Position numbers and translations under genes: made by a program
In this document: positions 7,658 to 48,731 of the stretch, one piece after another
How the letters are laid out: the number at the start of each line of letters is the position of its first letter
Position numbering within the stretch: the stretch's first letter is position 1
The notes under the pieces: model-generated
Database searches by the model: none
What the model was told of the DNA's origin: nothing
The model's input: only the letters and a program-made list of their open reading frames with translations
NCBI GenBank assembly: GCA_965215615.1
Contig: OZ244068.1
Coordinates: 2,558,504-2,622,503 of the forward strand
DNA from: Vicinamibacteria bacterium
Lineage (GTDB): Bacteria > Acidobacteriota > Vicinamibacteria > Marinacidobacterales > Marinacidobacteraceae
Length of the DNA: 64,000 nt
Direction: 5' to 3'

Positions 7658-8791
7658 TCACCGTATGGAGGAGGCAGTCTGATTCGCCATCCGGGAGAAG
7701 TAGTCGGCGTGGCCCGCGAGGATCCGTTCCTCGGCCTCGCGGTTCGGTTCGAGGGACCATTCGCCGGGTTCGCGGGTTCCGCCGAGGAGGATTCCGTCGG
7801 CGCGGGGCATCATGTAGAGGCCTCCCATCAGGGCGATGTATCGCACCTCCGGCTGGGGCAGCAGCACGGTGAGCTGGCCCTTCAGCGGAACGAGCTCCTC
7901 GTCGCCCACCAGATCGCGGGCCCCGATTCCGGTGCAGTTCACGACATGGCGTTCGGCGAGCGAGGCGACCTCGTCGAGAGACCGGAAGTCACGGATGCGG
8001 ATCCGGCCGCCGGCAAGCTGGAAATCCCGCATCACCGCGCCAAGATAGACCGGGGGCTCGATCATCATCGTCGTGTACTGGCGGGCGAACCGGGACGGAA
8101 AGGGATGGGTTCCCGGGGCCAATTCGCGGGAATCGGGGAAGAGGTCGGCCAGCGGATCGGGGCGGGTGCTGCCGCCGAAAGCGACTTCGCTCAGCGCGTA
8201 GTTCGGTAACCAGTACACCCCGTAGCGGCTTCCCACCATGTCCTGGAACATGCGCTGGGAGATGCGGGCCGCCCGCTCGAAGCGGGCTTCGAAGGCGGCG
8301 GTATGGACCCGGGCATCGGAGACCGAATAGGGTCCCCACTGGGCACAGGCCACGTTCGAGGTGGTGCGGGGCGGCAGGTCTTTCGCGTGGATGGTGACCG
8401 CCACGCCGCGATCCTGAAGAAGACGGGCGGTCGCGAGTCCCACCGCGCCGCAGCCGATGACGGCAGCGCGGGCGGGGAGCGGGCCGTCCCGGAGCAACTC
8501 CTCCACCGCGAGAAAGGCGCTGCCCCAGGACAGACTGACTCCCCCTCCTCCGTGGCCATAGTTGTGGACCAGCAGGCGGCCGCCGCCCAGATCTTCGCGC
8601 TCCACCCGGAAGCCGGATGGACGATACGGGCGGAGCCCCGCCACCGTGCGGATGACCCGATCCGGGGAAACCCGAACCGGGGGAAGACGGAAGTCCGGAG
8701 CGGGTCGGGTCGCGGGGGCCGGCCTCCCGGCGCAGGCGGCGACGAGTCCGGGAAACGCGGCGAGCGCGCCGCGGCGAGAGATCGGAGGCAT
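7658..8791 (-). CDS. FAD-dependent oxidoreductase, D-amino-acid oxidase (DAO) family, Tat-signal
   Basis: 377 aa with an N-terminal RRGALAAF twin-arginine motif, a GXGXXG-type dinucleotide-binding region (VIGCGAVGLATA) and a DAO-like C-terminal region. Confidence 0.65.
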   Translation of the reverse strand: MPPISRRGALAAFPGLVAACAGRPAPATRPAPDFRLPPVRVSPDRVIRTVAGLRPYRPSGFRVEREDLGGGRLLVHNYGHGGGGVSLSWGSAFLAVEELLRDGPLPARAAVIGCGAVGLATARLLQDRGVAVTIHAKDLPPRTTSNVACAQWGPYSVSDARVHTAAFEARFERAARISQRMFQDMVGSRYGVYWLPNYALSEVAFGGSTRPDPLADLFPDSRELAPGTHPFPSRFARQYTTMMIEPPVYLGAVMRDFQLAGGRIRIRDFRSLDEVASLAERHVVNCTGIGARDLVGDEELVPLKGQLTVLLPQPEVRYIALMGGLYMMPRADGILLGGTREPGEWSLEPNREAEERILAGHADYFSRMANQTASSIR

Positions 8792-8842
8792 CGGCGTGGG
8801 TTCCCTATACTAGGTGCCTTCCCTTTCGAGGAGGTTCACGGC

Positions 8843-9568
8843 ATGGATCGCAGATTGTTCCTGAAGGCAAGCGCCGCGGTGAGTGCCGCCGGTGTCGTCG
8901 GCGTGAACGATCGGGCGGAAGCGCTCGAACACGAGATGATGCGGCTTCTCGAAGCGCCGGAGCGGCCCCCGCTCGCGAAGGCGGAAGGCGAGGACGCGCT
9001 CTCCGTCATGCCAGAGCGGCCGACGCTCGTGGATTTCTTCGAGCACCGTTTCGCCCCGGCTTCCCACGTGCTCCAAAGCGCCACCCGCGCCCGGAAGTTC
9101 GGCATGAGCGAAGAGATCATCCTCGCCTGCCTGCTCCACGACATCTCGGTCACCAATCTGGTGCGGGCCGACCACGGCTGGTGGTGCGCGCAGATGATCG
9201 AGCCCTACGTCTCCGAGAAAGTGGCGTGGGCGATCCGCTACCACCAGGCGCTGCGGTTCTTCCCGGACCCTTCGGTGGGCTACGAGTATCCGGAGATGTA
9301 CGCGCGGATGTTCGGGGCCGACTACGAGCCGGAGCCGTACCTCAAGGCGGCCCACGAATACGCGAGGAACCACAAGTGGTACATGGAGGCGCGTTCCATC
9401 ACGCTCCACGATGACTACAGCTTCGAGCGGGATGTCGAGGTCTCGATCGATCCGTTCGTGGACATCATCGGCCGACACTTCAAGCAGCCAAGGGAAGGGC
9501 TCGGTTACGACAACAGCCCGACCGCGCACATGTGGCGGACGATGATCAACCCGCGTCGCCGTCTGTGA
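8843..9568 (+). CDS. HD-domain metal-dependent phosphohydrolase/oxygenase-like protein with Tat signal
   Basis: Starts MDRRLFLKASAAVSAAG (Tat motif). Carries H…LLHDI…H…H…D residues of the HD superfamily. The longer ORF-track frame from 8303 overlaps the divergent DAO gene and is rejected. Confidence 0.5.
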   Translation: MDRRLFLKASAAVSAAGVVGVNDRAEALEHEMMRLLEAPERPPLAKAEGEDALSVMPERPTLVDFFEHRFAPASHVLQSATRARKFGMSEEIILACLLHDISVTNLVRADHGWWCAQMIEPYVSEKVAWAIRYHQALRFFPDPSVGYEYPEMYARMFGADYEPEPYLKAAHEYARNHKWYMEARSITLHDDYSFERDVEVSIDPFVDIIGRHFKQPREGLGYDNSPTAHMWRTMINPRRRL

Positions 9569-9570
9569 AG

Positions 9571-10041
9571 ATGAGCCGGTATCGAACTGCCGGCTGCCTC
9601 GTCCTCGGGGTTCTTCTCGCCGGCTGCTCCGCCCGCACTCCGTCCAAGCCGCTTCGGGTGTATGTATATGCGGCTCCGGTCGAGGAGGAAGCGGAAGCGG
9701 CCCGGCTCCACGAGGCACTCGCCACCGTGCGCGAGGCAGTGGACGGGCGCGACCGCTGGTTCCGGTTGGTGGATACCGGCAACGGGTTCGATGTGGGCCT
9801 CCGCCTCATCCGGTACGACATCGACCGCGCGCGGCCGGGCCTCTACGCCGGGGCCATCGAGACGGAGCGCATCCACGCGGTCGAGGGAGTCGCGATCATC
9901 GCCGAGCAGACGGAGCGGTTGACCGGCTTCGACACCCGCGAGGTGGGGTTTTCGCACCTCCAGTTCGCTGCCGGCGACCTCGTCGAAAAGCTGGAGCGCT
10001 ACTGCCGCGAGAACGAGGGCCTGCTCGCCAGGGCCAGGTAA
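9571..10041 (+). CDS. Hypothetical lipoprotein
   Basis: Signal peptide plus lipobox MSRYRTAGCLVLGVLLAGCS. No recognisable domain. Confidence 0.45.
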   Translation: MSRYRTAGCLVLGVLLAGCSARTPSKPLRVYVYAAPVEEEAEAARLHEALATVREAVDGRDRWFRLVDTGNGFDVGLRLIRYDIDRARPGLYAGAIETERIHAVEGVAIIAEQTERLTGFDTREVGFSHLQFAAGDLVEKLERYCRENEGLLARAR

Positions 10042-10269
10042 GGGGAGCGTTACTCGTCCATCAAGTCCAGCAAACCGGCGGTATCGTCGAGATCCACGCC
10101 GGGCTGAAGACCCCGGCCACGGGTGTTGAGCCGCCTCGGTGCCATGGAGCGACGGAGACGGGCCATCCGCTCCCGTGGGGCATCCTCGATCAACGCCTCC
10201 AGGCTGATTCCGAGACTCGCGGCCTCGTCCAGCCGAACCGTAAGCCGCATGGCATCAGCATGGAAGGCA

Positions 10270-12602: not shown

Positions 12603-14369
12603 GTGCAATACTCCGGTGCGATACGGTCCTTCAACACGACGGGCCCGGTCGAGCCGGGGGAGCACTACTGCATCTCGCCGCTGGATCGGCTGGAGCTGGA
12701 AGAGGTTCTCGGGCTGATTCGTGGCGAGAAGTACTTCGTCCTCCACGCGCCGCGACAGACCGGAAAGACTTCCACGCTGCTCGCGCTCCGCGACCTGCTG
12801 AACTCGGGTTCCGTCGGGGATTTCCGCTGCGTGTACGCGAGCCTCGAAGCTGGTCGGAACGGGGACGTGGAGCGGGCGATGCGGAGTGTCCTCGGCGAGA
12901 TCGGGGTACGGGCGGAAGACACCCTGGGCGACGAGCTGGTAGAGCGTTCCTGGCCGGAAACCCTGGCTACTGCGGGTCCGGATCGTGCGCTGCGGGCGGT
13001 CCTGGGGCGCTGGGCGGCAGCCGCTCCGAGTCCCCTTGTGCTCTTCCTGGACGAAGTGGACACCCTCACGGGGAACGCGCTCCTTTCGCTGTTAACAGGC
13101 TGTGGAAAAACTAACGCGGCATTCGACGAGCGATGCATCCCGTCTGAACGCTCGCCTAGAGGCTCGCTCTTCGTTGCGTTTCGGTCGAAATAGCGCTGCT
13201 ATGGCTCCCTCACGCGCCTTGTCAGACGGGCGCTTCACCCGTCTCGGTGCTCACGCCAGTTTCTCCACAGCCTGTTAAGCCAGTTGCGGCTCGGTTACGA
13301 GCAGCGCCCGAAACGCTTCCCGCAGTCCGTGGTCCTGTGCGGTCTTCGCGATGTGCGGGATTACCGGGCACCCGGAGTGGCGGGAAGCCCGTTCAACATC
13401 AAGGCGGAGTCGTTGCGGCTCGGCGACTTCGACGAAGCGGAAGTCCGGGAGCTGCTCGGCCAGCACACGGCGGAGACCGGCCAGCGCTTCGACGAAGAAG
13501 CGCTGGAACTGGTGTGGAGCCATACCCAGGGCCAGCCGTGGCTCGTGAACGCCTTGGCCCATGACGCCTGCTTCCGGCACAAGCCGGGGCGGGACCGCTC
13601 GCGGACGATCACCGCAGCCGACATCCGGGATGCCCGCGAGCGGCTGATCCGGCGGCGGGAGACGCACCTCGGGCAGTTGGCGGTGAAGCTCCGCGAGGGC
13701 CGGGTGCGCCGGGTGATTGAGCCGATCCTGAGCGGGACGGCGGGATACGACGCGACGAGCCAGGACATCGAATACACGCGGGATCTGGGGCTCATCGCCC
13801 GGGACGCGCCGATCCGGATCGCCAACCCGATCTACGCGGAAGTGATCCCCCGGGAACTCACGAACGCGATGGAAGAGGGGCTGACGGAGGACACGGCGTG
13901 GTATGCGGACCCGGATGGTGGGTTGCTGCTGGAGAAGCTGATGGGGGCGTTTCAGGAGTTCTTCCGGGAGCACAGCGAGCACTGGGCGGGGCGGTTCGAC
14001 TACGCGGAAGCGGGTCCGCAGTTGATCCTTCAGGGGTTCGTGCATCGGATCGTGAACGGTGGCGGCCGATTGGAGCGGGAGTACGGGATCGGGCGGGGGC
14101 GGATGGACCTTTTGATCGCGTGGCCGCGGGGCAAGGAGGAGGACCAGTTCGTCGTGGAATGCAAGATGGCGGACAAGAGAGCGCACAGGGGAAAGGACCA
14201 CGCGATCGCGGAGGGATTGCGCCAGACGGCGGGCTATCTCGAGCGGCTGGGTTCCCGGATCGGGCACCTGGTGGTCTTCGACCGGGATCCGGAGAAGTCG
14301 TGGGAAGAGAAGATCTACCGGTGCGACGAGGATTACGAGGGGAAGACGATCACCGTCTGGGGGATGTGA
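12603..14369 (+). pseudogene. AAA-ATPase-like (archaeal-ATPase type) protein with C-terminal PD-(D/E)XK nuclease domain, interrupted by a MITE insertion
   Basis: The N-terminal part has Walker A (HAPRQTGKTS) and Walker B (LFLDEVD). The reading frame is broken by the 13092..13278 element. The C-terminal part resumes in the same frame (…FPQSVVLCGLRDVRDY… ; GRMDLLIAWP…FVVECK PD-(D/E)XK motif). Removing 183 bp restores one 590-aa ORF. Confidence 0.75.
13092..13278. mobile_element. MITE-like element, copy 2 (187 bp with TTAA flanks), inserted in the AAA-ATPase gene
   Basis: Same termini (ttaaCAGGCTGTGG…CCACAGCCTGttaa) and ~95% identical core to 6157..6343. Confidence 0.75.
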
Positions 14370-16886: not shown

Positions 16887-17936
16887 TCAACCTCGGCGCG
16901 GGGCAGTACACAGGAGCTTCGAGAAGAAGTCCGTCTCGCTCGTGGCCTCGGTGGCCGCGGCAACCACGGCTTCGTCGGAAGCGGCGGCGAGGTCCTTCAT
17001 GCGCTCCGCCGGCCAGCCAGCCGACGAAATCTCGATGTTCCGGGAAGCCAGCATCGTCCGCACCAGCGCCGCACGCCCTTCTACGAACCCTTCCGTGCGT
17101 CCTTCTACGAACCCTTCCGTGCGTCCTTTCGCGAACCCTTCCGCGAGCGTCACGCCGAGCAGCGGATCGTCCTCGGAGCGGGTTCCCTCGCGGTCGCCGA
17201 GCATCCGACCCACCCGTCGCAGCACTTCGGTCGTGGTCGCCGAGATCGTCTTCTCGTTCAGGGCGCGGTGGATTTCGGTCGCCGTCCAGCCCGGAAACGC
17301 CCGGCTCGCTTTCGATTGGACGAACTGGCCCTCCTCCAGCAGGTAGATCCGAAGCTCCGGCCGGAGTCCCGAGCGCCGCCGCGGGAACTCCGCATCCGGA
17401 ACTTCCACCCAAAGCTCCGGAAAGCCCCACTCCTCGTACAGCTTCGCCTTGTCGCGACGGGTGTCCCGGGTGATGTCCACCTCCAGCACCACGTCCGGAT
17501 ACGGATCCCTCCCGACGCTCAGAAACCTCCCGTTCCCGGACACTCGCGAAGGACCCAGGAAGATCAACTGATCGGGGCACATGACGCGCACGAAACCGGT
17601 TGCCGGGTTCCGCACCCGGAGCTGGCCCGAGCCGCCGAAGGCCATCGGAGCACCCCGCACCATCGCGATCCTCTCCGCGAGGACGGCGAGACGCACTCCC
17701 GGTTGCTCGTGGGTGAGGCTCGGCCCATCCTCTGCCATCCAGGCGAGACCCGACTCCGAATCGAAGAACTCGATCTTGCGGTCGTCTTCCGGGAGCGCGT
17801 CGTACTCGGCGAGCGTCATCCGCTGCGACACGCAACCCGCGAACTCCAGCTCCGAAACGGACGACCAGCGCGAACGGCGACGCGCTCGCTTGGAGGCCCT
17901 TTGGGGGGCCTTTTGTGGAGCTACGGCCGTCTCCAT
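16887..17936 (-). CDS. Uma2-family (DUF820) restriction-endonuclease-like protein with C-terminal EG/KG-repeat region and DUF4351-like tail, tandem copy A (349 aa; 3 repeat units)
   Basis: …MTLAEYDALPEDDRKIEFFDSESGLAWMAEDGPSLTHEQ…YPDVVLEVDITRDT…KAKLYEEWGFPELWVEVPDAE… are Uma2 hallmarks. The C-terminus has (GRTEGFVE)x3. The likely true start is the internal MTLAEY Met. Confidence 0.7.
   Translation of the reverse strand: METAVAPQKAPQRASKRARRRSRWSSVSELEFAGCVSQRMTLAEYDALPEDDRKIEFFDSESGLAWMAEDGPSLTHEQPGVRLAVLAERIAMVRGAPMAFGGSGQLRVRNPATGFVRVMCPDQLIFLGPSRVSGNGRFLSVGRDPYPDVVLEVDITRDTRRDKAKLYEEWGFPELWVEVPDAEFPRRRSGLRPELRIYLLEEGQFVQSKASRAFPGWTATEIHRALNEKTISATTTEVLRRVGRMLGDREGTRSEDDPLLGVTLAEGFAKGRTEGFVEGRTEGFVEGRAALVRTMLASRNIEISSAGWPAERMKDLAAASDEAVVAAATEATSETDFFSKLLCTAPRRG
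17077..17148. repeat. 24-bp in-frame tandem repeat (ccttctacgaacccttccgtgcgt) x3 in Uma2 copy A (x2 in copy C at ~19087-19134, x1 in copy B)
   Basis: Visible directly. It encodes the (E)GFVEGRT units. Confidence 0.8.
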
Positions 17937-17938
17937 CG

Positions 17939-18919
17939 CTACCGGAGCCTCGAGAAGAAGTCCGTTTCGCTCGTGGCCGCGGTGGCCGCGGCAACCACGG
18001 CTTCGTCGGAAGCGGCGGCGAGGTCCTTCATGCGCTCCGCCGGCCAGCCAGCCGACGAAATCTCGATGTTCCGGGAAGCCAGCATCGTCCGCACCAGCGC
18101 CGCACGCCCTTTCGCACGCCCTTCCGCGAGCGTCGCGCCGAGCAGCGGATCGTCCTCGGAGCGGGTTCCCTCGCGGTCACCGAGCACCCGACCCACCCGT
18201 CGCAGCACTTCGGTCGTGGTCGCCGAGATCGTCTTCTCGTTCAGGGCGCGGTGGATTTCGATCGCCGTCCAGCCCGGAAACGCCCGGCTCGCTTTCGATT
18301 GGACGAAATGGCCTTCCTCCAAGAGATATATCCGTAGCTCCGGCCGGAGTCCCGAGCGCCGCCGCGGGAACTCCGCATCCGGAACTTCCACCCAAAGCTC
18401 CGGAAAGCCCCACTCCTCGTACAGCTTCGCCTTGTCGCGCCGGGTGTCCCGGGTGATGTCCACCTCCAGCACCACGTCCGGATACGGATCCCTCCCGACG
18501 CTCAGAAACCTCCCGTTCCCGGACACTCGCGAAGGATCCAGGAAGATCAACTGATCGGGGCACATGACGCGCACGAAACCGGTTGCCGGGTTCCGCACCC
18601 GGAGCTGGCCCGAGCCGCCGAAGGCCATGGGAGCACCCCGCACCATCGCGATCTGTTGCGCGAGGACGGCGAGACGCACTCCCGGCTGCTCGTGGGTGAG
18701 GCTCGGCCCATCCTCTGCCATCCAGGCGAGACCCGACTCCGAATCGAAGAACTCGATCTTGCGGTCGTCTTCCGGGAGCGCGTCGTACTCGGCGAGCGTC
18801 ATCCGCTGCGACACGCAACCCGCGAACTCCAGCTCCGAAACGGACGACCAGCGCGAACGGCGACGCGCCCGCTTGGAGGCCCTTTGGGGGGCCTTTTGTG
18901 GAGCTACGGCCGTCTCCAT
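17939..18919 (-). CDS. Uma2-family endonuclease-like protein, tandem copy B (326 aa; 1 repeat unit)
   Basis: About 97% identical to copy A. Its start codon lies 3 nt from the stop of copy C, and its own stop lies 3 nt from the start of copy A. Confidence 0.7.
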   Translation of the reverse strand: METAVAPQKAPQRASKRARRRSRWSSVSELEFAGCVSQRMTLAEYDALPEDDRKIEFFDSESGLAWMAEDGPSLTHEQPGVRLAVLAQQIAMVRGAPMAFGGSGQLRVRNPATGFVRVMCPDQLIFLDPSRVSGNGRFLSVGRDPYPDVVLEVDITRDTRRDKAKLYEEWGFPELWVEVPDAEFPRRRSGLRPELRIYLLEEGHFVQSKASRAFPGWTAIEIHRALNEKTISATTTEVLRRVGRVLGDREGTRSEDDPLLGATLAEGRAKGRAALVRTMLASRNIEISSAGWPAERMKDLAAASDEAVVAAATAATSETDFFSRLR

Positions 18920-18921
18920 CG

Positions 18922-19923
18922 CTACCGGAGCCTCAGGAAGAAGTCCGCCTCGCTCGTGGCACCGGTGGCCGCGGCCACGACGGCTTCGTCGGAAGCGGCG
19001 GCGAGATCTCTCATCAGGTCTGCCGACCAGCCAGCCGACGAAACCCCGATGTTCCGCGAAGCCAGCATCGTCCGCACCAGCGCCGCACGCCCTTCTACGA
19101 ACCCTTCCGTGCGTCCTTTCGCGAACCCTTCCGCGAGCGTCACGCCGAGCAGCGGATCGTCCTCGGAGCGGGTTCCCTCGCGGTCGCCGAGCATCCGCCC
19201 CACCCGTCGCAGCACTTCGGTCGTGGTCGCCGAGATCGTCTTCTCGTTCAGGGCGCGGTGGATTTCGATCGCCGTCCAGCCCGGAAACGCCCGGCTCGCT
19301 TTCGATTGGACGAACTGGCCCTCCTCCAAGAGATAGATCCGAAGCTCCGGCCGGAGTCCCGAGCGCCGCCGCGGGAACTCCGCATCCGGAACTTCCACCC
19401 AAAGCTCCGGAAAGCCCCACTCCTCGTACAGCTTCGCCTTGTCGCGACGGGTGTCCCGGGTGATGTCCACCTCCAGCACCACGTCCGGATACGGATCCCT
19501 CCCGACGCTCAGAAACCTCCCGTTCCCGGACACTCGCGAAGGATCCAGGAAGATCAACTGATCGGGGCACATGACGCGCACGAAACCGGTTCCCGGGTTC
19601 CGCACCCGGAGCTGGCCCGAGCCGCCGAAGGCCATGGGAGCACCCCGCACCATCGCGATCTGTTGCGCGAGGACGGCGAGACGCACTCCCGGCTGCTCGT
19701 GGGTGAGGCTCGGCCCATCCTCTGCCATCCAGGCGAGACCCGACTCCGAGTCGAAGAACTCGATCTTGCGGTCGTCTTCCGGGAGCGCGTCGTACTCGGC
19801 GAGCGTCATCCGCTGCGACACGCAACCCGCGAACTCCAGCTCCGAAACGGACGACCAGCGCGAACGGCGACGCGCCCTTTCGGGAACCACCGCCGCGTCC
19901 ACTACCGCCACCACTCCAGCCAT
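18922..19923 (-). CDS. Uma2-family endonuclease-like protein, tandem copy C (333 aa; 2 repeat units; divergent N- and C-termini)
   Basis: Same family hallmarks. The N-terminus is MAGVVAVVDAAV… instead of METAVAPQ…. The ORF-track extension to 20049 is rejected. Confidence 0.65.
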   Translation of the reverse strand: MAGVVAVVDAAVVPERARRRSRWSSVSELEFAGCVSQRMTLAEYDALPEDDRKIEFFDSESGLAWMAEDGPSLTHEQPGVRLAVLAQQIAMVRGAPMAFGGSGQLRVRNPGTGFVRVMCPDQLIFLDPSRVSGNGRFLSVGRDPYPDVVLEVDITRDTRRDKAKLYEEWGFPELWVEVPDAEFPRRRSGLRPELRIYLLEEGQFVQSKASRAFPGWTAIEIHRALNEKTISATTTEVLRRVGRMLGDREGTRSEDDPLLGVTLAEGFAKGRTEGFVEGRAALVRTMLASRNIGVSSAGWSADLMRDLAAASDEAVVAAATGATSEADFFLRLR

Positions 19924-19988
19924 GCGGCGATGGTAGCGGATTCCGCTGCATCCTCCGCGATACGCTGCCCGCCCGGAGGTTGCCCCTG

Positions 19989-46874: not shown

Positions 46875-48731
46875 ATGACCCACTCCGCTCCTCCTCTGAA
46901 GCCCATTGACGGCGAACCGCGCAGTATTCGTGCGCTCTTGAGTGAAGCCAAATATTCCGTTGACTACTACCAGCGTGAATACAGATGGGAAACCAAGCAC
47001 ATTGACGAACTACTCGCCGATCTAGTCAACAAATTTAGGGAGAGCCACATCGCGGGTAACCCACGAGGTTCGCACAAAAATTATGACCACTACTTTCTTG
47101 GGTCTATCATCGTATGCGGAATAAATCAGAAGAAATTTCTTGTTGATGGTCAACAAAGAATCACGACCCTAACGCTTCTTCTCATTTTTCTGAGGCATGC
47201 ACTCGAAGAAGCCGAAGATAAGGGAGAACTCGATCCGCTAATCCGGTCCAGAGTCGCCGGTGTGCGTTCATTCAATCTGAATGTTGACGAACGGACACCT
47301 TGCATGGAAGCTCTTTTTGACCAAACTCCACACCCAGATCCGCCACCTTCGGATTCAGTGGAGAATATTTTGGCTCGATATCAGGATCTGACCGAGTTGT
47401 TCCCTGACAACTTACTCCATGAATCTCTTCCTCTGTTCGTAGACTGGCTCCTCGATAACGTACACATGATCGAAATCGTGACGTACTCGGATGCCGATGC
47501 ATATACCATTTTCGAAACCATGAACGACCGTGGCCTATCATTGACACCCTCCGAAATGCTGAAGGGCTATCTCTTAAAGAGTATCGACATCGAAAAAAGA
47601 ATAGAAGCCAATAACGCATGGCGATCTCGCTTTCGACGACTTGGAGAACTCGGGAAAGGAGAAGGAGCGGAGGCGGTCAAAGCACTGTTGCGGAGCCAAT
47701 ATGCGTTGACGATTCGGGAGCGGAAGAGCAACGCAGAGCCTCGAGACTTTGACCTCATCGGTACAGAATTTCATCGATGGGTCCGGCGCCAGAAGGATCA
47801 CATCGGCCTACGAGTCAACGATGATTTTTTTCTTTTCATCACACGAGAATTCGAATACTACGGAAGCTGGTACGAAAGACTCCGACGTGCTGGAGATACC
47901 CTCACTGAGGGCTTGGAGTGTGTGCATTTCAACGCTCAGCATAGATTTACCCTTCAGTATCCGCTTCTTCTTTCACCGATCAGACTGAGTGACGATGAAT
48001 GCGATGCGCTTCGTAAAGTTCGCATCGTAGCATCTTTCCTTGATATCTTTATCTGTAGGAGAATATGGAATTGGAGATCAATCGATTATTCGACCATGCA
48101 GTATGCGATGTTCTCTGTCATGAAGAAGATTCGTGCGAAATCTATCGAGGAACTACTTCTGGTTCTTGGTCAAAGATTAGATGAGGAAAAAGAAACATTC
48201 GCGAAGAGTGATTGGAACGCTAGTTTTGGACTTCATGGAACTAATGGCCCGCGAATCCACCGCCTCTTGGCAAGAATGACAGATTATGTCGAAACCGCCT
48301 CCGGTCAGCAATCACGCTATGCCGAATACGCACGACGTGGGCATGGTGGCTACGAAATCGAACACATTTGGGCCGATCATGCGGATCTCCACAAGAACGA
48401 GTTTCGACACTCTAGCGAATTTGCCGAATATCGAAACCGAATTGGAGGCTTGCTTCTTCTTCCCAAGAGTTTCAATGCAAGCTACGGAGATCTTCCATAC
48501 GATAAGAAACGGGATCACTACTTAAAGCACAATCTGCTCGCACAGAGTCTCCATGAGAAGGCATACGAACGAGATCCAGGTTTCCTGAAATTCATCGAGC
48601 GGACCGGATTGGAATTTCGACATCACAAGAATTTTGGGCGAGAAGACCTTGATGCCCGGCAAGAGCTGTACCGGCAGTTGGCAGCCAAGGTTTGGGATCC
48701 GAATCGGCTCAAGGAGGAAATGGACGACTGA
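46875..48731 (+). CDS. GmrSD-like type IV restriction enzyme family protein (N-terminal DUF262/ParB-like NTPase domain with DGQQR motif + C-terminal DUF1524 His-Me finger nuclease)
   Basis: …LVDGQQRITTL… (DUF262) and …YEIEHIWADHADLH… (DUF1524 H-N-H-like). The gene and 55 bp upstream are about 48-50% GC against a ~70% background. Confidence 0.8.
   Translation: MTHSAPPLKPIDGEPRSIRALLSEAKYSVDYYQREYRWETKHIDELLADLVNKFRESHIAGNPRGSHKNYDHYFLGSIIVCGINQKKFLVDGQQRITTLTLLLIFLRHALEEAEDKGELDPLIRSRVAGVRSFNLNVDERTPCMEALFDQTPHPDPPPSDSVENILARYQDLTELFPDNLLHESLPLFVDWLLDNVHMIEIVTYSDADAYTIFETMNDRGLSLTPSEMLKGYLLKSIDIEKRIEANNAWRSRFRRLGELGKGEGAEAVKALLRSQYALTIRERKSNAEPRDFDLIGTEFHRWVRRQKDHIGLRVNDDFFLFITREFEYYGSWYERLRRAGDTLTEGLECVHFNAQHRFTLQYPLLLSPIRLSDDECDALRKVRIVASFLDIFICRRIWNWRSIDYSTMQYAMFSVMKKIRAKSIEELLLVLGQRLDEEKETFAKSDWNASFGLHGTNGPRIHRLLARMTDYVETASGQQSRYAEYARRGHGGYEIEHIWADHADLHKNEFRHSSEFAEYRNRIGGLLLLPKSFNASYGDLPYDKKRDHYLKHNLLAQSLHEKAYERDPGFLKFIERTGLEFRHHKNFGREDLDARQELYRQLAAKVWDPNRLKEEMDD

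Follow-up and report, generated by a model that had tools for sequence, protein, structure and literature searches.

A concertedly evolving tandem array of predicted Uma2-type nuclease genes with a variable repeat helix in a Vicinamibacteria bacterium

What kind of locus keeps, side by side, three closely similar genes of the Uma2 (DUF820) family, each with its own number of the same internal repeat? The question is raised by an array on the minus strand of a 64 000-nucleotide stretch of the genome of a Vicinamibacteria bacterium (GenBank assembly GCA_965215615.1, contig OZ244068.1, positions 2,558,504 to 2,622,503), the whole of which is called the window here. To our knowledge, no function is known for Uma2/DUF820, a nuclease family that is very large in bacteria. 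The reading that we favour, and to which we give an even chance, is that of a tandem array of Uma2-type nucleases with a variable oligomerization helix and a conflict-type role.

The three copies are co-linear and lie head to tail, with start-to-start spacings of 983 and 1007 nt, according to the listing of open reading frames (ORFs), a repeat finder and a three-way MAFFT alignment of the DNA (Table 1). These analyses bore out a first-pass annotation of the locus concerning the number and orientation of the copies, the substitutions that it cited (AERIAMV versus AQQIAMV, FLGPSRV versus FLDPSRV), the counts of the in-frame 24-bp repeat and the differing N- and C-terminal ends. The stop-to-start spacer, given there as 3 nt, is actually 2 nt (CG) at both junctions, which read ...CGG TAG CG ATG GAG... 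on the minus strand. The same TAG-CG-ATG junction occurs in the corresponding array of a sister strain (locus L001) and in a second array of the sister genome (locus L082). At the protein level copy 2 is 97% and copy 3 94% identical to copy 1. At the 3′ edge of the array the internal TAG has been replaced, and the C-terminus of copy 1 is extended as a result; LC, a copy of the sister strain, has the same C-terminal ending. The duplicated unit is one gene, almost exactly. Neither terminal inverted repeats nor target-site duplications were found at the array by the repeat finder or by reading of the sequence.

The sister-strain locus, situated on a 2.9-Mb contig of an independent assembly, was reached by an exact-protein look-up of the closest database match. 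Its flanks are 99.4% identical to those of the window over 9.7 kb, and three copies with identical junctions occupy the same site; as in the window, they are flanked by the amidohydrolase gene on one side and by the 352-amino acid gene and the MFS transporter gene on the other. Copies 3, 2 and 1 of the window contain 2, 1 and 3 repeat units, respectively, versus 6, 4 and 5 units in the sister strain, and all six alleles of the two strains are in frame. Since the sister strain has the same three-copy array with different unit numbers, the array is no artefact and predates the separation of the strains, and the 24-bp repeat is a true variable-number tandem repeat (VNTR). An assembly artefact, in which repeat mis-assembly would have expanded a single gene to three, is therefore highly improbable: the copies are indeed highly identical, but each differs from the others at about 20–30 sites, and repeat number and both ends differ as well; the substitutions follow a coding pattern in all copies, and the three-copy structure recurs, with other repeat numbers, in the independent assembly.

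The view of the first-pass annotation, in which the copies are true paralogues that have diverged, with a VNTR-like sequence inside them, and not one repeat wrongly collapsed or expanded, is thereby upheld, and the orthologous locus of a related genome has turned out to hold an array of three rather than a single copy. The suggestion that the array is amplifiable and possibly phase-variable fared less well. The copy number is three in both strains; it is the repeat number and, through gene conversion, the sequence that vary instead. A phase-variable contingency locus, switched ON or OFF by frame or promoter spacing, was considered and ruled out, as the unit measures 24 bp, lies inside the ORF and leaves six alleles in frame; its gain or loss alters the helix by 8 residues and cannot turn the gene on or off.

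The family is not confined to this site. Cluster look-ups revealed at least one further paralogue, P0002, on the 3.0-Mb contig of the window. In the sister genome, the second array (L082, positions 8001–9871) consists of two copies and lies 2.2 Mb from the first; about 22 nt upstream and about 40 nt downstream are common to it and the array of the window. Its neighbours include a glyoxalase-family gene, a gene for a TonB-type outer-membrane protein, AAA_16/AAA_22 ATPase genes and a DUF4062 gene.

Over the core of the genes (codons 21–262), the ratio of nonsynonymous to synonymous differences per site (pN/pS, Nei–Gojobori) is 0.06–0.27 for nearly all pairs, and all copies are therefore under purifying selection. 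The pS among paralogues within a strain is 0.005–0.032 in L001 and 0.038–0.062 in the window, and that between positional orthologues of the two strains 0.051–0.070; on average, paralogues inside a strain are more alike than positional orthologues across strains. In addition, four sites within 40 bp are strain-fixed in all three copies, which read EEGQFVQSK in the window (with H for Q in copy 2) versus EEGRFAQSK in L001. Such strain-specific substitutions common to the copies, together with the within-strain closeness, indicate that the array evolves in concert. The last 168 nt of copy 3 extend this picture: they show 18–19 differences from every other array copy and 6 from the first copy of the second array of the sister genome. 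As the tail of copy 3 thus matches the allele of the second array, and the common tail is present in the positional orthologue of copy 3 in L001, gene conversion acts between loci too.

The N-termini were considered separately, as some gene callers start homologues at Met40. The segment upstream of this residue, R-W-x-P-V-S-x-L-E-F-x-G-C, is conserved family-wide, and the head METAVAPQKAP has homologous counterparts at the N-termini of other family members, for instance MAIAVEPARAP and MRGVAPAEAE. Consequently, the annotated ATGs are likely to be the true starts. LA, the positional orthologue of copy 3 in the sister strain, is called from the same ATG as copy 3. An imperfect 16-bp hairpin at about 19898–19940 (minus strand) places the start codon of copy 3 in its loop, part of the N-terminal head of this copy being the inverted complement of the 5′ leader; the predicted fold of this region is no better than those of shuffled sequences (z −1.4). 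The array would most likely be transcribed as one operon, and translational coupling between the copies is plausible because only 2 nt part each stop from the next start. No sigma-70 promoter consensus was found at the array, terminator-like sites were not above shuffle expectation, with none at a junction, and the RNA folds of the junctions were no better than those of shuffles. Rfam and tRNA searches of the window gave no matches. The GC content of the array equals that of its surroundings.

The heads of the two internal copies contain an 11-bp tandem duplication (AAAGGCCCCCC, 2.2 copies; about 17895–17918 and 18878–18901, minus strand), which encodes PQKAPQRA and forms a small GGCCC/GGGCC hairpin. 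It is missing at the junction of the second array of the sister genome.

Assignment of the proteins to Uma2/DUF820, as proposed in the first-pass annotation, is supported by a Pfam match, by the fold and by conserved core residues. Uma2 (PF05685) covers residues 43–180 with 26.9, 27.5 and 28.3 bits in copies 1, 2 and 3, respectively, the gathering cut-off being 27; the Pfam evidence is thus borderline and the fold is clear. Nearly all homologues carry a precomputed PF05685 annotation, and a scan of the proteins against NCBIfam gave nothing useful. Searched against the sequences of the PDB, the family profile matched 9y1l, a ‘putative restriction endonuclease domain-containing protein’ (E 1.5e-5). 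An AlphaFold2 model of copy 1, built on 115 sequences (mean predicted local distance difference test score, pLDDT, 88), matches in its N-terminal domain the DUF820 crystal structures 6okh, 1wdj and 3ot2 (Foldseek E 1.1e-6 to 5.5e-5, probability 1.00, target template modelling score 0.61–0.66). The 115 homologues show no variation at E56, H76, D122, D154, D158 and R160 and almost none at E77, D148 and E152. H76 and E77 lie in helix 1, D122 belongs to the hPD motif and E152 and D154 to the motif E152-V-D154; the EPD and VEI motifs of 9y1l are the counterparts of D122 and E152 in the alignment. The alignment on the putative catalytic residues of Uma2, which might have overturned the assignment, thus found the acidic and basic residues of the core conserved.

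Behind the nuclease domain, the model contains helices at residues 219–227 and 233–250, a long helix at 258–298 and three short helices within 310–344. The repeats (residues 266–289 in copy 1) fall inside this single predicted long helix, and their units place a glycine at every fourth residue (EGFV-EGRT...). Weak matches to the Yae1_N and FliH hidden Markov models lie exactly on the repeat, in low-complexity sequence (E-values 0.002–0.15); they are matches at the level of the motif, owing to the glycine at every fourth residue. The predicted plan of the protein is a short basic N-terminal extension, the Uma2 nuclease domain, two short helices, the long G-x-x-x-G repeat helix and a small three-helix bundle.

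A word-indexed search returned at least 1523 related proteins, the best 120 of which are 45–60% identical over more than 80–98% of the length. In these 120, the conserved motif GTGPDDDPLL and the helix LVRAxLxxRGI enclose a segment whose length varies by steps of four, with extremes of 10 and 66 residues. Among 1.84 billion representatives, a tail-only profile had 416 matching clusters at E ≤ 1e-3, and 189 when the limit was set to E ≤ 1e-10. In a scan of species-representative genomes, members were found in metagenome-assembled genomes (MAGs) labelled Vicinamibacteria/Acidobacteriota, Gemmatimonadetes, Gammaproteobacteria and Spirochaetia, and a single genome commonly contains several of them. 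Judged by their record names, many of these MAGs may come from sponge-holobiont sets. The post-repeat tail is conserved across the subfamily and, in the cases inspected, was seen behind this Uma2 domain and nowhere else. At 14 of 80 loci, a 6-kb stretch contains more than one copy. The maximum is seven in a row, at a Spirochaetia locus (L073, 2940–12938). The seven copies of L073 and the five of L080 (Spirochaetia MAG contig CBDBOG010000001.1) are all on one strand at each locus and span less than 13 kb there. The repeat regions of these two arrays, which are much larger than that of the window, measure 18–42 residues. A rule that all paralogues differ in repeat number was rejected: it holds in both strains studied here, but is not significant for three plus three copies and is broken in L073 and L080. 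Judged by sequence, the architecture defines a large unnamed Uma2 subfamily of over 1500 clusters in four phyla, often in arrays. No publication linking Uma2 to such repeats was found in the library searched. In cyanobacteria, Uma2 genes are reported to have multiplied, with many copies in one genome (PMC9403480; PMC3424549).

What such proteins might do is suggested by the Rpn proteins, PD-(D/E)XK nucleases that are toxic (Zhong et al., PMC10400941). The Rpn nuclease is inhibited by RpnS, a short C-terminal protein made from an internal start located 8–20 residues before a series of repeats; these four-residue repeats form part of the long first helix of RpnS, their number varies widely among strains, and the partners interact only when they have equal repeat number (PMC10400941). 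Moreover, rpn arrays arise by tandem direct duplication, and one Rpn protects against phage (PMC10400941). According to a commentary (PMC10400984), such variation in the repeats would keep several rpn copies of a cell insulated from each other.

The following scenario can be proposed for the array of the window. It would have been born by tandem duplication of an almost exact gene unit, and gene conversion, both within it and with the second array elsewhere in the genome, keeps the copies in concert. The 24-bp repeat would expand and contract by slippage or unequal exchange and would therefore give each paralogue, and each strain, its own helix length. By analogy with Rpn, the variable helix may be an oligomerization surface, its length choosing the partners, such that co-expressed paralogues of unequal length could act as separate homodimeric nucleases. 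The rapid change in length may reflect genetic conflict, for example anti-phage defence or toxin control. A bolder version, which we consider doubtful, sees in these proteins a second, independently assembled class of PD-(D/E)XK conflict nucleases with a repeat-length ‘bar code’ on the dimerization helix, insulated tandem paralogues and possibly a non-AUG internal cognate inhibitor. If true, the bar-code reading would extend the Rpn principle beyond one family and provide a first mechanistic handle on Uma2. We know of no case other than Rpn in which a hypervariable four-residue helix repeat sets the partner specificity of a toxic nuclease; if the same design were realized on another nuclease scaffold, this would point to a general means, evolved more than once, of diversifying toxic nucleases and keeping them apart. 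With its three paralogues that differ mainly in helix length, the window is a compact natural experiment in which the idea is directly testable.

A number of observations weigh against the reading as conflict nucleases with an oligomerization helix. Its functional part, namely nuclease activity, dimerization through the repeat helix and a role in defence or conflict, is predicted by analogy, and the Pfam Uma2 score lies at the threshold. Neighbouring copies are often, yet not always, unequal in repeat length, four of the seven L073 copies sharing one length. A defence-island context was rejected, as the neighbours of the array in the window are metabolic, and at about 45 other loci the neighbours are heterogeneous, with 128 Pfam families among 140 proteins (PIN 6, DDE transposase 2, integrase 2), a tally made without a proper background control and from which no enrichment is claimed. 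The DUF4351-like character that the first-pass annotation saw in the C-terminal tail was not recovered either. None of 48 tails matched Pfam DUF4351, even with the limit relaxed to E ≤ 10, RpnS was not found when the PDB sequences were searched with a profile, and hhalign against Rpn tails aligned the expected 25 columns with P = 0.036 and a probability of 1.4%. Foldseek did not return RpnA-S (7TH0) with a tail-only model, which is of low confidence overall (mean pLDDT 68.5; below 50 for residues 1–41 and 82–88 for residues 50–105). Finally, a conserved internal start like that of RpnS was not found. The 115 members lack a conserved AUG before the repeats: Met245 is private to copies 1 and 3, the position being Ala in 82 of the 115, and any Met in the 35 residues before the repeats is found in 23 only. 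The conserved Val242 codon is not enriched in GTG over five control Val positions, and orphan tail ORFs, that is, stand-alone tail genes, were absent from 80 loci.

These last observations bear as much on a gene-within-gene toxin–antitoxin of the Rpn type, in which a C-terminal protein made from an internal start (repeat helix and bundle) would silence the full-length nuclease only at matching repeat numbers. All the Rpn parallels apply to this alternative, and 20 codons before the repeats there is an in-frame ATG (Met245) in copies 1 and 3, and a GTG in copy 2, at a spacing resembling that reported for RpnS (PMC10400941). In addition to the missing conservation, however, reading of the sequence revealed no clear Shine–Dalgarno motif upstream; a putative internal product, which might begin at a non-AUG codon, is unsupported and this alternative is unlikely. 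Two short matches to the tail profile had readable contigs: L084 is a frameshifted gene and L083 a contig of 2x coverage with scattered Uma2 fragments; other short or odd-length tail matches resemble fragments by their sequence. At L084 (2294–3276, on a 1.76-Mb long-read contig), two homopolymer indels split a member into a Uma2 ORF of 235 amino acids and a tail ORF of 91 amino acids. The split is either a sequencing error or a pseudogene and illustrates how false ‘stand-alone tails’ arise in protein databases.

The position of the repeats, in one continuous predicted helix between two folded parts, and the quantized changes in length, by steps of 4 or 8 residues, would also suit a molecular ruler. 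The helix would then hold the nuclease domain at a defined distance from the C-terminal bundle, a possible DNA-binding part, and 8-residue steps would shift the cleavage position or target spacing, as do the TAEL repeats of EcoR124I/II HsdS, a precedent cited in PMC10400941. Against this stand the failure to detect a DNA-binding fold or helix-turn-helix match for the bundle and the G-x-x-x-G periodicity, which is typical of helix–helix packing and not of a rigid spacer, as the weak Yae1_N and FliH matches reflect; a ruler is improbable. It is quite unlikely, too, that the array is the product of a selfish, proliferating gene, homing- or transposon-like, whose own nuclease activity makes copies, arrays and dispersed paralogues being signs of mobility. 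The family is multi-copy and dispersed across genomes of four phyla, the duplicated unit is almost exactly one gene, the second array has short flanking sequences in common with the first, and transposases or integrases are among some of the neighbours. Nevertheless, both terminal inverted repeats and target-site duplications are missing from the array, which occupies the same site, with conserved flanks, in both strains; all its copies are under purifying selection; and PD-(D/E)XK proteins are not known as autonomous transposases (PMC10400941).

The genes around the array encode an amidohydrolase, a GGACT protein, an FAA hydrolase, a 2-hydroxyacid dehydrogenase, the unannotated 352-amino acid protein, whose leader resembles a signal peptide, and an MFS transporter. 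Across the loci there is no conserved partner gene, and the association with variable regions is faint. Hints of toxicity or anti-phage activity are indirect: PIN or mobile-element genes are occasional neighbours, and PADLOC gave weak matches on the Uma2 core (E 3e-4 to 8e-3) to PDC-S17, a defence system that is itself a candidate and consists of one gene.

Elsewhere in the window, a 618-amino acid type IV restriction enzyme of the GmrSD family is encoded at 46875–48731 on the plus strand (GmrSD_N E 1e-31, GmrSD_C E 2e-10). Its gene fills the only low-GC stretch of the window (0.48–0.53 versus about 0.67), between a GSDH-like gene and a pyrroloquinoline quinone (PQQ) dehydrogenase gene, and is probably a horizontally acquired defence gene. 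At 12603–14369 (plus strand), an AAA_22/AAA_16 ATPase ORF (12603–13193) is followed by an ORF of 361 amino acids without Pfam match (13284–14369); the two look like one gene split in two. Positions 12765–14243 are missing from L001 and represent a strain-specific indel 2.5 kb downstream of the array. About 700 bp at 9570–10269 of the window and 17293–18033 of L001 cannot be aligned between strains that are otherwise 98–99% identical, which suggests a local replacement.

Table 1. Features of the Uma2-type array and their positions in the window
Feature	Position	Strand	Description
Copy 3, first gene of the array	18922..19923	−	333 amino acids from ATG; head MAGVVAVVDAAVVPE; 2 repeat units; divergent tail allele
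Copy 2	17939..18919	−	326 amino acids; head METAVAPQKAPQRASK; 1 repeat unit (EGRAKGRA)
Copy 1, last gene of the array	16887..17936	−	349 amino acids; 3 repeat units; extended C-terminus (…FFSKLLCTAPRRG)
Junction, copy 3 stop/copy 2 ATG	18920..18921	−	CG dinucleotide; sequence reading
Junction, copy 2 stop/copy 1 ATG	17937..17938	−	CG dinucleotide; sequence reading
VNTR, copy 1	17070..17141	−	3 × 24 bp, encoding EGFAKGRT-EGFVEGRT-EGFVEGRA; Tandem Repeats Finder and direct inspection
24-bp repeat, copy 2	18101..18124	−	1 unit
24-bp repeat, copy 3	19084..19131	−	2 units
Uma2-type PD-(D/E)XK nuclease domain, copy 1	17313..17834	−	Residues about 35–208; Pfam, secondary structure, Foldseek
Uma2-type domain, copy 2	18296..18817	−	Corresponds to the domain of copy 1
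Uma2-type domain, copy 3	19303..19824	−	Corresponds to the domain of copy 1
Post-repeat tail, copy 1	16890..17069	−	End of the long helix and short helices 310–318, 321–330 and 334–344
5′ region of the array	19898..19979	−	56-nt spacer to the divergently transcribed amidohydrolase gene and imperfect 16-bp hairpin

Canonical Uma2/DUF820 proteins (TT1808, 1wdj; Ava_3926, 3ot2; 6okh; 9y1l) have the same restriction-endonuclease-like fold and conserved core, but consist of a single domain of about 180–190 residues; in the array subfamily, this domain is preceded by a conserved segment (W.PVS.LEF.GC) at the N-terminus and followed by some 140 further residues, a C-terminal module to which the variable repeat helix belongs. 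The repeat helices of FliH/YscL and Yae1/Lto1 likewise have glycine at every fourth helix position and variable numbers of repeats; this resemblance is one of motif only, the proteins and their functions being unrelated. As in simple-sequence contingency loci, an intragenic tandem DNA repeat differs in copy number between closely related strains, whereas the 24-bp unit of the array is always in frame and changes protein length without switching expression.

The parallels with Rpn are strong. There, too, a helical domain lies C-terminal to a PD-(D/E)XK nuclease domain and begins with a long helix made up in part of four-residue repeats with much G, E, R or K; strains and paralogues differ in the number of these repeats; and the genes are multi-copy, patchily distributed and arranged in arrays made by tandem duplication, without transposon ends. 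The Rpn homologues that we retrieved vary in length by steps of four. A local pattern, EGxxxG...A(L)xxARTML..G(I/V), is common to both, with EGxxxG...ALRIARTML.DGI in Rpn tails and EGxxEGRAALVRTMLASRNI in those of the array; one Rpn tail, EAGFQKGWLEGLQEG...EALRIARTMLADGID, is very like EGFAKGRTEGFVEG...RAALVRTMLASRNIE of the window. In the protein database, Rpn proteins bear the C-terminal Pfam annotation PF27070. The nuclease domain of the array is Uma2 (PF05685) and not Transposase_31 (PF04754), which had no match at E ≤ 1 in any copy, RpnA and two homologues scoring about 300 bits with the same library. The post-repeat region is about twice as long and contains three further helices, neither a conserved internal start nor, at the 80 loci, stand-alone tail genes were found in the subfamily, and the repeat in the lineage of the window is an 8-residue, 24-bp unit. 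On the evidence of sequence comparison, the resemblance to Rpn is strong in architecture and behaviour and does not amount to demonstrable homology: the locus appears to be built like Rpn while belonging to another family.

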